Shown here: positions 13,744 to 61,070 of the stretch, in pieces
How the letters are laid out: every line of letters starts with the position of its first letter
Numbering within the stretch: the first letter of the stretch is position 1
Source of the DNA: Eledone cirrhosa
Taxonomy: Eukaryota
DNA: 64,000 nt
Direction of reading: 5' to 3'
NCBI GenBank assembly: GCA_964016885.1
Contig: OZ024741.1
Location: 340,938,001-341,002,000 of the forward strand
Translations under genes and position numbers: made by a program
The notes under the pieces: model-generated
What the model was told of the DNA's origin: nothing
Seen by the model: only the letters and a program-made list of their open reading frames with translations
The model's database searches: none

Positions 13744-13955
13744 TTAGAAAGTGAGGTTTTTTTTTTACAAAATGAAAAATAACCGAGGTGTCCTACACGA
13801 GTGAACGTATAAAGAAAAAAGATGAAATCGAAAATGTAACTGGAGTCTTATTTTTTTAAAAAATATATATATTTATTTGGTTCCTGTACCGGTTTCGCAG
13901 TTCTTCTCTTTTTCAAAAGTAGAGTTGAGATGGAGGGTCTGTGGTTTTTCTCACA
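13744..13955 (-). mobile_element. Short non-autonomous PLE-like (pLTR/retrozyme) family X, copy 1 (long terminus)
   Basis: Homologous to 29044-29257, 33692-33810 and 60926-61070; flanked by (TA)n; HHR-like motif. Confidence 0.75.
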
Positions 13956-14370
13956 TATTTATATATATATATATATTTATAAATATATATATATATTTAT
14001 ATTTATATTTATATATATATATATATTTATATATATATATATTATATAATATATATATATTTATATAATATATATATATATATATATATATTTATATAAT
14101 ATATATTATTATATAATATATATATATATATAATATATTTATATAATATATATATATATATTTATATAATATATATATATTTATATAATATATATATATA
14201 TTTATATAATATATATATATATATTTATATAATATATATATATTTATATAATATATATATATATATATATATATATATTATATATATAATTATATCTTAT
14301 ATATATATATATTATATAAATATATATATATATATATTATATAAATATATATATATTTATATATATATAT

Positions 14371-14584
14371 AACTAAGGAAGTGTGGTAAGGAACCAGATG
14401 GACCATAATTCACCAGAGTACTCAATACTTGGGGTAGTAGAGTGGGTAATAGGTAAAATGTTTAATCCCGGCGGCAGAGCTCAAGCCGTTTCGACGACTA
14501 TTTCTGGACTGAAATAGTCGTCTAGTCCAGAAATAGCTGTCGAAACGGCTTGAGCTCTGCCGTCGGGGTTAAACATTTTCCTAT
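14371..14584. mobile_element. Mini fold-back of the PLE-3 family 3' end
   Basis: 14449-14510 is inverted relative to 14523-14584; homologous to 40461-40600 and 43975-44036; sits in (TA)n. Confidence 0.85.
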
Positions 14585-15385
14585 ATATATATATACAGAG
14601 ATAGAGAAAATTCAGAACTCATTTCGGATTGCCAGCATATGATATTCAAGAAATGTTCATATCACAGTCCCACACTATGCTCACACAGATGATATGAATT
14701 TACATACTTAACAACAAACAGATGGACTACATCTAGACACGGTAGTTTATTAGCTATTAAAATTGGAAAGATTGTAATTAAAACTCTAAATGTTTTTCAA
14801 TATTGTGAAGTATATAGTTGGAACATAATTTTATATGTATGTATATGTATATATACGCATATATATATATATCCACTGGATATATATATATATATATATA
14901 TATATATATATATATATATATATATATATATATATATATATATATAAAACAAACACACACATACACACACACACACATACACGCACATATATATATACAT
15001 ATATATATATATATACATATATATATAAATACATTATGAAGAGAGAAGAAACATTTAGATATAATTAGTAATAAAATGTATCATACCTAAACTGTTCCTA
15101 AATTCCTCGACTACGTAGTTTGGTCTGTCCCAGTCATTCATTGAGCAACATCGGTGAAGTTGGCACCCTTAACTCACAGTTGGGTGCGGATGCATTCATG
15201 TATATATGTGTGCGTCCGCATGTATCTGTGTGTTTCTAAATATATTATATATATAAATATATATGTATATACATATATACATATATATTTATGTGTGTGT
15301 GTGTGTGTGAATGTGTGTCTGCGTGTGTGTGTGTGTTCGTGTGCGTGTGCATGTCCGTATATATGCATGTACGCCTATATGTGTA

Positions 15386-15507
15386 TCTGAGTTCAAATCC
15401 TGCAGAGTTTGGTTTTGCCTCTCATTCTTACAGAGTCGATAAATAAAGTACCAGTAATGCACTGGGATAATTACTGGCTTTGTGCCAAAAGTAGAAACAA
15501 TTATTGA
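15386..15507 (+). mobile_element. tRNA-derived SINE family A, partial
   Basis: B box GAGTTCAAATCC plus family body GTCGATAAATAAAGTACCAGTAATG...GTAGAAACAATTATT. Confidence 0.8.
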
Positions 15508-15930
15508 CATGTAGACGTAATCATGGATCTATTCAAATATTTGGGTTACTTAATTAGCTATATATATATATATCATTAGCTTATTAATAGATACACACTA
15601 TTTTTGTTCAATGACGTAAAATGAATTATGTCTAATCTAAGTTATACTTTCAGCGAAGTTCTGCTTCACGTCCACTTTTTATTCATTGTCTTTCTGAATT
15701 TTGAAAATATATATACTGTGCTAAAATGTTTATTTATTTAATATAGCCTAGTCTCTGAAGATCGCTTCAAAGTATAAAAGACTAGATTCTCTGCTTAAAT
15801 TTATACACCAGTTCAAAATAATAAATATTGCTCTTTTTACGGTTTTATATATATATATATATATATATATATATATATATATATATATATATATATATAT
15901 ATATATATATATATATATATATTATATATA

Positions 15931-16085
15931 TATAAAAGAGAAAACACGGGGTAAGCATTAAGAGAATACCTGGATAAAATCCTTCTCTTAATGCTTACCT
16001 GTGTTTTCTCTTTTATACTTTATACTCAAGATTGAACGAAATTTTTACAAACTTGTGGAGTTACCCCTAACCGTACGTTGAATGT
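15931..16085. mobile_element. Mini fold-back (36-bp arms plus ~65-nt one-sided tail) at a (TA)n edge
   Basis: 15931-15966 is inverted relative to 15983-16017. Confidence 0.65.
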
Positions 16086-16206
16086 ATGTATAGTATATTT
16101 GGCAATATACCGTATGTGTTAATTAAAATATTTAGAAGACCATACGCTATCGGTTTTAAAGTAGTGATTATGTCACTTACTTCTTTTCGGCGAAAGAAGG
16201 GAGAGA

Positions 16207-16248
16207 AGCTAACAATCTGTTTCACGCTGTTTGGCGATCATCAGAGCC
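16207..16248 (-). ncRNA. Type I hammerhead ribozyme in a short PLE-like insert (about 16100-16349)
   Basis: Minus strand: GGCT CTGATGA TCGCCAAACAGCGT GAA ACA GAT TGT T AGCT; stems I, II and III all pair. Confidence 0.7.
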
Positions 16249-58460: not shown

Positions 58461-58584
58461 CCATTCTGAGTTCAAATCCCGCCGATCTCAACTTTGCCTT
58501 TCATCCTTAGGGGGTCGATAAAATAAAGTATCAGTAATGTACTGGGTAATTGCTGGCCTTGTGCCAAAAGTAAAAACATTTATT
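58461..58584 (+). mobile_element. SINE family A, partial
   Basis: B box and body. Confidence 0.8.
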
Positions 58585-59661
58585 TGTAACACTTGATGTC
58601 CTATTTCCATTGCTCTAGTCCTCTAATATAAAAAAAGAACACTCTATTTTCTACACTTTTCACAATGCTCCAAGCAAACTATAACACACTCTAAAGTTTT
58701 GTATTGTAATATTTATATTAATTTTTAAAAGTATATTTACAAATTCTCGATTCTTTTTTATTTTCAGTTAAAAAAAGTCACGGAATGAATTACAATCGAC
58801 TGGGATTTCGTCACATCATCTCAACAATGTCATAGGATTTGGATGTACAATGAAGCATTCTTTTTGCGGTTATCATCTTGTTGAAAGGGAAGATGAAAGG
58901 AATACAAATAGATAAAGAGACAAGAAGACTCTAGAGAGAAAAAAACATACAATTGCTAGATAGACAGACAGACAGATAGATAGATAGAAAGATAGATAGA
59001 TAGATAGATAGATAGATAGATAGATATGTTTCTTTATTAGCCACAGGGGCACAAAAGAAGGGGACAAATACAAAGGGGGAAGTTTACATACAATAAAAAC
59101 GTGTAAAATGTTATCACAAATAGATAGATAGATAGATAGATATAGACAGATATAGACAGATAAGTGAACTTATAACAGCAATTCAATTATTACTAAACAA
59201 TATGGCGCTAAAACATTTTAGTGGGATATTTTGTTTCAAGTCTTTTTGTTTTATTTCATTTTCCCATCACTTTCCCGTTCTCAAAATACAAGGATTTTAT
59301 TGTCGACGCCACAACGATGATATTTCAAAGAATTCTGTCATTTCAACATTGAATGGCAATAACAACAATACCATAACCAGCGGCAACACAAACATCAGCA
59401 ACAACAAAAATCACAAAGCCGTGTTACATTGAAATGACATCATCATCAGCACGATCTTCATCAAGAAGAAGAACATAATCCTCAACAACAGCAACGACGA
59501 CAACAACATCAAAAACTATAATAATAATTATTATTTCTTTTATTAACCACAATGGATCTAGACGTTCGAGAACAATACAAGGAAGAAATAATACAAACAC
59601 ATTAGAGGGAGTTATACCGAGAGAAAAAAAGAGCTAAATCAGTAACAACAATAAAGAAATA

Positions 59662-59887
59662 ATAATAATTGTTTCTACTTTAGGCACAAGGCCAGCAATT
59701 TAAAGGGGATGGGAAAGTCGATTAAATCAACCCCGGTGTTTATTGGTACTTTACTTTATCGACCCTGTAAGGTTGAAACGCAAAGCTAACCTCGGCAGCA
59801 TTTGAACTCGGGTCGTAAAGGGGTGTAACTTTATGCTGCAAAGAATGGTGTCCGACACTCTACCAATACTGCCAATCAACCGCCTTA
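59662..59887 (-). mobile_element. SINE family A, full length
   Basis: Reverse complement of the family pattern; flanked by (AAT)n. Confidence 0.85.
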
Positions 59888-60127
59888 ATAATAATAATAA
59901 TAATAATAATAATAATAAATATAATAGTGATTTTTGTTTTGTGAAAAGAAAATTTTTAAAAGAAAATTTCTAATCCAAAAGACATGAAAAGGAAATGAAA
60001 ACATAGGAATGAACAAAACGAGAAATGGTTAAATAATGAGAAAATTAATGAAATAATAACTGTGGATCGAAAGCAGAGAAAAGGATAAAGAGAATAAAGA
60101 AACGTGTAAAATAAACTAAGAATAAGT

Positions 60128-60427
60128 ATGAATGATATTAGTTTAACAACTCACGTAATAGCTGTAACGAATGTTGGAACAGCTGTGACCAATGACTCAG
60201 AATGGAGTTTGAGTCAACGACAAAACCACAGTATGCAGGTTTCAAGTATTATGTTTGGAACTGGCGTCTTTGGGAATATTTTAGCTTTGGTATTTCTCGC
60301 TAATTCAAAGAAGGAGCAAAGGCAGACGATATTCTACAAGTTGGCTGCAAGCCTCGTTGTCACCGATCTAATCGGAACAGTGGGTACGTCTCCTATCGTG
60401 ATAGCATCCTATGCCAATAACCAAACG
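60128..60427 (+). CDS. PTGER4: First coding exon of a prostanoid (prostaglandin E2 EP4-like) class A GPCR, N-terminus to TM2
   Basis: SSIMFGTGVFGNILALVFLANSKKEQRQTIFYKLAASLVVTDLIGTVGTSPIVIASY aligns to EP4 (MFIFGVVGN..KEQKETTFY..LAVTDLLGT..SP); N-glycosylation sequons NDS/NHS; GTAAGC donor at 60428 (phase 0). Orthology is not established. Confidence 0.85.
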
Positions 60428-60508
60428 GTAAGCAAGAACATTTGTGTGTGTGTGTGTGTGTGTGTGTGTGCGTGTGTGTGTTGTTTGTTTTGTTGTTTAT
60501 TGTCGTTT

Positions 60509-60898
60509 ATCTATATAATACTAAAAGTCTGTCATTGCTTGCTTGTTTGTATGTTAGGTAATACAGCCAAAAGGGCGCATAATGGGAAAATACTTTCAAA
60601 GGAAGTTGACCCTGAAATGCGAATACAAATGGAAAAAAACAAGTTTCGCGTAAATCGTTACACGGGTTCCCGAGATATGGGCTTTTCCGTGTAGCTTCAT
60701 AAACAGAGAGAGTGGCTATGAGAAAGTAGATTGAAAGAGAAACATAGAGAGAGGGAGAGGAGACAGAGAAGGAGAATGAAAGAGAGAAAGAGAGCTGGTG
60801 TTGTTGTTGTGTATATATATATGTGAGTGTGTGTGTGTATATATATGTGTGTATAGGGGGGTATATATGTGTGTGTGTATAAGCAGTGTATATAGATC
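60509..60898. mobile_element. Possible Helitron/Helentron-associated (DINE/Lep1-like) non-autonomous element in the GPCR intron
   Basis: ATCTATATA...TATATAGAT ends, AAGTTTCGCGTAAATCG...GGTTCCCGAGATAT motif, internal microsatellites. Confidence 0.4.
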
Positions 60899-60925
60899 AC
60901 AGTCACCCACATATATATATATATA

Positions 60926-61070
60926 TATAACAAAGATGAAATCAAAAATGCAACTGTAGTGTTATTTAAAAAAATATATATATATTTATTTGGTTCCTTT
61001 ACCGGTTTCGCAATTCTTCTGCTTTTCAAAAGTAGAGTTGAGATGGAGGGTGTGTAGTTTTTCTCACATC
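60926..61070 (-). mobile_element. Family X copy 4 (short terminus)
   Basis: Homology to 29115-29255; abuts (TA)n. Confidence 0.78.

Follow-up and report, generated by a model that had tools for sequence, protein, structure and literature searches.

Introduction

The closest described relatives of the motif studied here are the minimal hammerhead ribozymes (min-HHRs) of Penelope-like elements (PLEs). The motif lies in a stretch of 64,000 nucleotides from Eledone cirrhosa (contig OZ024741.1, positions 340,938,001 to 341,002,000 of the forward strand); this whole stretch is called the window, and positions are counted from its first letter. An original prediction, made from the letters alone, had proposed a four-copy family with a hammerhead core in which positions 3 and 8 pair as U3-A8. 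Our analysis makes it very probable that the four copies are pseudo-long terminal repeat (pLTR), or 3'-end, fragments of an abundant PLE and that the motif is its U3-A8 minimal type I hammerhead. By sequence and by analogy with described PLEs, this ribozyme would be a weak cutter, acting as a dimer through the palindrome ACCGGU or with the element protein, and it is probably dispensable for copying.

In the passages on Schistosoma in Cervera and De la Peña (2014, PMC4209133), U3-A8 min-HHRs of Cercyon PLEs are reported, with about 1,300 retrieved by a dedicated descriptor. The S. mansoni Cercyon elements resemble the E. cirrhosa families in carrying a type I min-HHR with U3-A8 in the pLTR, mostly as single dispersed motifs, and in showing close pairs on opposite strands and a predicted dimer. 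Unlike Cercyon, the E. cirrhosa motif has a stem II of 4-5 bp, no extra base between positions 9 and 10.1, the ACCGGU palindrome as helix III and mostly a GUA triplet, and its host PLE has a CX4CxxC linker. The PLEs of rotifers, shrimp, mosquito and Drosophila virilis (Penelope), as treated in the same passages, likewise have a helix I of few pairs, with only 2 bp in D. virilis, a small palindromic helix III and high copy conservation in young families; the core pair U3-A8 sets the E. cirrhosa families apart from them.

The PAc Poseidon PLE of Anolis, as described in parts of Frangieh (2024, PMC11167929), shares two fixed 3' ends that define a tail, AT-rich targets, a hammerhead near the pLTR-open reading frame (ORF) junction and a template intact across the cut site. 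PAc has C3-G8 and an ORF that starts inside the hammerhead, whereas in E. cirrhosa the ATG lies ~170 nt downstream and the tail is ~60 nt long. The relevant passage of Perreault (2011, PMC3088659) gives a core consensus, reports natural U3-A8 hammerheads with the same core covariation and cites earlier work for their in vitro activity; it does not link these hammerheads to PLEs and holds no rate for a minimal PLE context. Metazoan non-LTR retrozymes, in the part of bioRxiv 10.64898/2026.07.22.740005 that concerns them, also have a type I hammerhead related to PLE pLTRs. They form head-to-tail tandem arrays, in contrast to the E. cirrhosa copies, which are pieces of a coding PLE that stand alone or head to head. 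The U3-A8 pair is already in print, for PLEs in PMC4209133 and for other natural hammerheads in PMC3088659 (in the passages cited); novelty is not supported, and the swap itself adds little.

Motif copies in the window

The window contains the following copies and arms.

13745..13956, minus strand: copy 1, PLE 3'-end fragment of family A, long end with tail; damaged hammerhead at 13884-13919
28791..28975, plus strand: copy 5, 3'-end fragment of family C; hammerhead at 28824-28859
29045..29258, minus strand: copy 2, tailed fragment of family A, whose minimal hammerhead at 29180-29215 is intact
29277..29345, plus strand: inverted partial arm adjoining copy 2, element positions ~87-155, short end, without hammerhead
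33691..33819, minus strand: copy 3, short end, belonging to the older subfamily B, with its hammerhead at 33751-33786
60929..61437, minus strand: copy 4, short end; a longer part of the 3' untranslated region (UTR) of the parent, 5'-truncated, with the hammerhead at 60997-61032
61606..61768, minus strand: continuation of the copy 4 3' UTR beyond an unrelated insert of ~170 nt
61774..61860, plus strand: inverted 5' arm of copy 4

The minus strand reads TTGAAAA, a 13-nt stem II with its loop, GAAA, CCGG and TA at all four sites of copies 1-4 (4/4), exactly where the motif had been predicted, with U3 at positions 13916, 29212, 33783 and 61029. The replacement of CUGANGA by UUGAAAA was likewise confirmed in each copy. 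By a local BLAST search, copies 1-4 are pieces of one repeat of ~212 nt (78-94% identity to copy 2), spaced 4.6-27 kb apart; the motif in all four therefore reflects shared descent and not four independent cases. The count of four was incomplete, as the family C copy on the plus strand (~28791-28975) had been missed.

Copy 2 has stem I CUU/AAG, UUGAAAA, stem II GCAG/CUGC, GAAA, CCGG and a GUA triplet. The GCAG/CTGC stem II ascribed to the best copy was found in full here and in none of the other three. Copy 4 (GCAG/UUGC) has one G-U pair, and copy 3 (GCAT/CTGT) retains 3 bp with the closing pair G10.1-U11.1, a trait of most aligned subfamily B arms. Stem I in copies 2-4 was CUU/AAG only. In copy 1 the two core-proximal pairs of stem II (AGAG/CTGC) are broken by A10.1-C11.1 and G10.2-G11.2 mismatches, and the first pair of stem I is broken by a U2.1-C1.1 mismatch. 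Copy 5 combines U3-A8 with a GUAU/AUAC stem II, GCAA in place of GAAA (A13C), CCGG and a GUC triplet.

Rfam returned no hammerhead family among the best 150 of 154 window matches at E ≤ 1, and none at the gathering score on four parent and relative loci, so the expectation that standard motif searches would miss the family was borne out for Rfam. A chance resemblance in an AT-rich repeat similar to a miniature inverted-repeat transposable element (MITE) or a short interspersed nuclear element (SINE) would fit this lack of an Rfam match, the AT-rich context, the short stems and the unremarkable folding energy of the window copies (z −0.76 to 0.66). Against it, when one element copy was shuffled 20,000 times with its dinucleotides preserved, a strict minimal-hammerhead descriptor was never satisfied and a relaxed one 117 times, nine of these with a palindromic helix III. 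The repeat is moreover part of a PLE, and its stems show paired changes between families. Because the parent element was found and covariation was observed, chance resemblance is refuted, and we give it next to no probability.

Contigs of three sequencing runs had no cover over 29143-29258 and hence have no bearing on the core. Near copy 4, a rhodopsin-family G protein-coupled receptor (GPCR) exon, which we take to be prostanoid-receptor-like, was noted at 60128-60420 on the plus strand (weak 7tm_1 match, E = 0.003). Copy 4 lies ~500 nt downstream of this exon on the opposite strand, so host transcription would yield the antisense of the hammerhead.

The parent element

Fourteen regions with widely spaced motif matches were fetched, and these yielded the parent, L096 (G000:C1:2525800-2533200), a full-length copy that is frameshifted and broken by stops. 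Its order is (TA)n, an inverted piece of the 3' UTR, ~20 nt of tail, ORF1, the reverse transcriptase-endonuclease (RT-EN) frame, a 1.5-kb 3' UTR ending in motif and tail, and (TA)n; the inverted arm at its 5' end is of the short kind. Pfam matches to RVT_1 (E = 5.5e-7) and GIY-YIG (E = 8.3e-7) were both above their cut-offs. The linker CGRSNCGTC reads CX4CxxC, and a CX2-5CxxC linker is given as common to Neptune and Nematis in the relevant part of Craig (2021, PMC8557442). The order of RT and C-terminal GIY-YIG with this linker is that of endonuclease-positive (EN+) PLEs, to which the parent belongs; its Neptune or Nematis type is read from the linker motif that both share.

On the ORF strand, the motif follows the RT/GIY-YIG ORF at a distance of 0.6-1.4 kb, within the pLTR. 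A protein search with the parent returned at least 150 scored places at 93-100% identity, many with open frames of 775 codons, and the motif was present within 1.5 kb downstream at 23 of 29 endonuclease loci other than L096. At tandem loci the cut site falls ~170 nt before the ATG of the next ORF. Window copy 4 is a fragment of this 3' UTR, longer than the other copies. This parent and the covariation between families described below upheld the prediction that the U3-A8 motif, with its palindromic helix III, is a minimal hammerhead of the PLE type.

Two other leads were rejected. A 185-nt insert in L025 had only three local matches, and the three RT/GIY-YIG PLEs inside the window lack the motif and are only 26% identical to the true parent in RT-EN.

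In families A, C and D the sequence U UUU UUA marks an overlap of ORF1 with the RT-EN frame (L096:4446, L223:6773, L224:2057, L214:4243, L219:4379 and L220:2374). From its sequence the overlap is likely a site of −1 ribosomal frameshifting; the hairpins predicted downstream are weak and differ, and the Fig. 1 legend of Craig (2021, PMC8557442) allows a frameshifted ORF1. At L162 the endonuclease is followed by a truncated family A 3' UTR and, behind it, by a ~285-nt unit repeated in tandem.

Copy number and insertion anatomy

Genome-wide pattern searches covered the 3.0-Gb animal genome. The core pattern, which allowed C or U at position 3 and G or A at position 8, gave 16,114 matches against 5 for the reversed control, and U3-A8 was present in 100 of 100 among the matches listed. 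The C3-G8 form with the same CCGG loop had no match genome-wide, and a canonical C3-G8 sister with this loop was rejected. A metagenome search for relatives gave one weak locus, which was left unused.

Copies in the genome are solo, inverted or part of coding PLEs. Each stops at one of two fixed end points, with or without the ~60-nt tail. A partner arm in head-to-head inverted orientation was present at 31 of 58 loci. In 21 of these 31 one arm ends at position ~155 and the other at ~212, which pairs a short with a long end, and both arm ends run into (TA)n. The two-base loop at nine clean arm junctions, read relative to the long arm, was GA in four and TC in five, so the tail falls on either side. 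Tandem or inverted insertion, a tail at one end and (TA)n targets are traits of EN+ PLEs, and all were observed here. The same anatomy, with an inverted 5'-truncated copy, a tail at one end and microsatellite targets, appears in the passages on PLE structure in Craig (2021, PMC8557442). In the part of Frangieh (2024, PMC11167929) on insertion, the tail is bounded by two internal RT start sites, and the protein is shown to extend either strand. By analogy, each arm would be a cDNA primed on its own. The layout of non-LTR retrozymes, a head-to-tail tandem array of non-coding hammerhead units, was not encountered among the window or genome copies.

The 5' ends were clustered in part. Nine of 30 family A matches end at CAGAT, 40-44 nt upstream of U3, and 6 of 22 family C matches end 41-47 nt upstream of U3; clustering of this type was not found in family D. 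Transcription start at a pLTR promoter is a possible cause, by comparison with what the relevant passage of Schostak (2008) describes. A splice donor at this hot spot was dropped as an explanation, as the GT is not kept in B or C. Separately, fixed 5' ends with shared upstream letters were noted at −186 in family C (8/22; L115-L117, L124, L128, L169, L173, L175) and at −253 to −255 in family D (5/16; L199, L201, L206, L209, L210). They suggest non-autonomous subfamilies with a 5' part of their own.

Sister families and covariation

Sister families were found by patterns that excluded the stem of family A and fixed the core and CCGG. Family C (stem II GCAU/AUGC, stem I UUU/AAA) gave 11,088 matches (control 1). 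It is a young family with long ORFs and has GCAA for GAAA (A13C) in 97 of 100 among the matches listed. Family D has GAUGG/CCAUC with a GUC triplet and family E GAUG/CAUC with GUA or GUU; together they gave 3,103 matches (control 9). The D and E core, among the 100 matches listed, was U3-A8 in 93, U3-G8 in 4 and C3-A8 in 3, with no C3-G8. Families C and D have RT-EN ORFs of their own, 57-58% identical to A, and no ORF could be tied to family E. A and C are homologous upstream of the motif; the flanks of A aligned with those of D or E no better than with shuffles.

The core is the same across families except at N7 (A, U, C, G) and H17 (A, C, U). Positions 3-9 with a Watson-Crick 3-8 pair, G12-A13-A14, A15.1-U16.1 and H17 were all as in a hammerhead, with the exception of A13 in family C. 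Helix II, GCAG/CUGC in family A, keeps G10.1-C11.1 and shows compensatory changes between families; it is broken in copy 1 and weakened in copy 3. Both sides change between families at stem II pairs 2, 3 and 4 and at stem I pairs 2 (U-A vs A-U) and 3 (C-G vs U-A). Five of nine pairs thus change on both sides, and covariation in a 14-row alignment was 0.359, compared with at most 0.156 for slid controls. Stem I, 2-4 bp long, had 69.6% of its cells paired over 4 pairs in this alignment. The palindrome ACCGGU occurs in all families, as sampled by searches that required CCGG, and modelled homodimers pair through it. G10.1 directly follows A9 in families A-E; the extra nucleotide between 9 and 10.1 is a common but not universal min-HHR trait in the passages of Cervera and De la Peña (2014, PMC4209133).

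As U3-A8 and ACCGGU persist and the changes in stems I and II compensate each other pair by pair, the motif is a true minimal type I hammerhead. Selection has acted on the fold in the source elements. Covariance of stems I and II, which the original prediction had named as a check, was seen as paired changes between families, and inside A and B there was none at stem II pair 4. Double changes at this pair numbered 130 in all, and the 100 listed were examined by hand: 23 were a single family C sequence, and the other 77 divided into 42 that pair and 35 that do not. Within-family covariation at this pair was therefore rejected. The term covariant, which had been applied to the core itself, holds for the 3-8 pair only against the hammerhead consensus and not inside the clade.

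Does the RNA cut?

The proposal of an active ribozyme gained no support, and two of the four predicted copies are damaged. In the folding model the young parent copies form both stems, with a stem I pairing probability of 0.5, compared with ~0.01 in copy 2. The passages on cleavage in Cervera and De la Peña (2014, PMC4209133) describe no monomer cleavage and low dimer cleavage for PLE min-HHRs, and the corresponding passage of Weinberg (2019, PMC6765202) agrees on both points. Within the part of Frangieh (2024, PMC11167929) on the ribozyme, PAc cuts only with protein, and hammerhead mutants leave insertion in vitro unaffected.

If U3-A8 fully replaced C3-G8, the motif could be an efficient and required ribozyme, with dimer cleavage and ligation making unit-length, perhaps circular, RNA for reverse transcription. 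The core is indeed kept across 57-58% protein identity between families, and in the young parent copies stem I reaches 4 bp and both stems form in the model. Private changes in 47 arms not chosen on the core were fewer in the core (1/514) than outside (53/4056; p = 0.027, subfamily sites dropped), with p = 0.051 for core plus stems; a first core-versus-rest count was discarded, as many of its arms were themselves pattern matches and subfamily sites were counted. The ~20 nt of tail just upstream of ORF1 in L096 is what a more-than-unit template would give. Such a ribozyme is nevertheless unlikely in view of the abundance of family C with A13C, the spread of subfamily B with G10.1-U11.1 and a 3-bp stem II, and the insensitivity of PAc insertion to hammerhead mutation. 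Every copy, moreover, reaches ~80 or 140 nt beyond the cut site, so its RNA template had either been left uncut or been joined again. With inverted partners on opposite strands, the motif in a read-through RNA would be paired with its antisense, and the palindromic dimer would not form.

A13 is an essential position of the hammerhead core, and C13 might pair with A8. Family C and subfamily B, which spread with altered or weakened cores, were counted against cutting. They also bear on a fully vestigial hammerhead, in which the fold is inherited, cutting is lost in all families and the motif persists for some other function, for instance to pair RNAs or to bind a protein. The A13C change and the G-U closing pair are fixed in successful lineages, stem I is very short, and competing hairpins occupy the U-rich core in predicted folds. 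This history is possible but on balance doubtful, because families A, D and E vary at the free positions N7 and H17. These families also retain G10.1-C11.1 and G12-A13-A14-A15.1, which the search patterns fixed, yet the families number thousands of copies. No G17 was seen among the matches, which is no test, as the pattern excluded it.

Several points weigh against a hammerhead that cuts and belongs to a named PLE clade. Stem I is 3 bp in the window copies and 4 bp in young copies, in D and E it has 2 bp and one mismatch, and none of the five window copies forms both stems in its minimum-energy monomer fold. The count of covarying pairs did not exceed its column-shuffle control (275 of 500). 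The 14-row alignment is small, with related rows picked by core-fixing patterns and row E3 shifted by one column, and its covariation is carried by only about three independent lineages. Covariation of the 3-8 pair inside the clade was not seen (no C3-G8 match genome-wide, 0/100 among the D and E matches listed). The clade name was drawn from a linker motif that Neptune and Nematis share.

Other elements in the window

Other mobile elements were recorded as follows.

40450-44050: a different PLE with an inverted 5' pLTR; RT at 41210-42127, GIY-YIG-like at 42318-42698
17423-19191 (plus), 25122-26903 (minus) and 8160-8568 (minus): three copies of another RT and GIY-YIG-like PLE family, with a CxC-x4-C-x5-C linker
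6131-7159, minus strand: non-LTR retrotransposon fragment, RTE-like RT tail with PHD finger
50374-51051, plus strand: non-LTR retrotransposon fragment, RT C-terminus, presumably CR1-like

The pLTR of the PLE at 40450-44050 reads as a hammerhead, with an ACCCC/GGGGU stem I, a CUGAGAA core (C3-A8 as written), a long stem II, a 5-bp stem III and GUC. Short arms of this element were seen next to family A arms or fused with them (L008, L011, L022). The three copies with the CxC-x4-C-x5-C linker are only 26% identical to the parent of the hammerhead studied here and showed no standard hammerhead by descriptor. Inverted, 100% identical flanks lie at 24022-24381 and 27216-27575. A near-perfect 70-bp inverted repeat at 16757-16906, with sub-threshold Rfam microRNA matches, is probably another inverted mobile element.

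Discussion

If the motif is the weak hammerhead of an abundant PLE, the two copy ends would correspond to two RT start sites, as described for a Poseidon PLE, with each arm primed on its own, and the RNA template would have been uncut or re-joined across the scissile bond. Any cutting would be confined to tandem pLTR-ORF-pLTR transcripts of source elements, not solitary copies. The ribozyme of the source elements would then be weak and assisted by dimer formation or by protein, and the window copies would be dead or near-dead passengers.

A more speculative proposal is that the palindrome ACCGGU, common to families with unalignable flanks, serves to let their RNAs pair into mixed hammerhead dimers. 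The survival of family C would then be owed either to a new three-way core, U3-A8-C13, in which only A8 makes A13C tolerable, or to cleavage in trans by the intact cores of A, D or E, and the ~30,000 motifs would amount to a cross-family ribozyme network. We regard this proposal as improbable.

The literature gave little on U3-A8 or octopus Penelope hammerheads beyond the papers cited, although the supplements of Cervera (2014) and Craig (2021) may list such families, and nothing relevant was found on hammerhead A13C. In the E. cirrhosa genome, ~30,000 pattern matches escape Rfam and descriptors limited to C3-G8, and hammerheads are undercounted to that extent. The sister families, with intact (A, D, E), weakened (B) and changed-A13 (C) cores, all in thousands and with long ORFs nearby, are a natural test set for the role of the hammerhead in PLEs.

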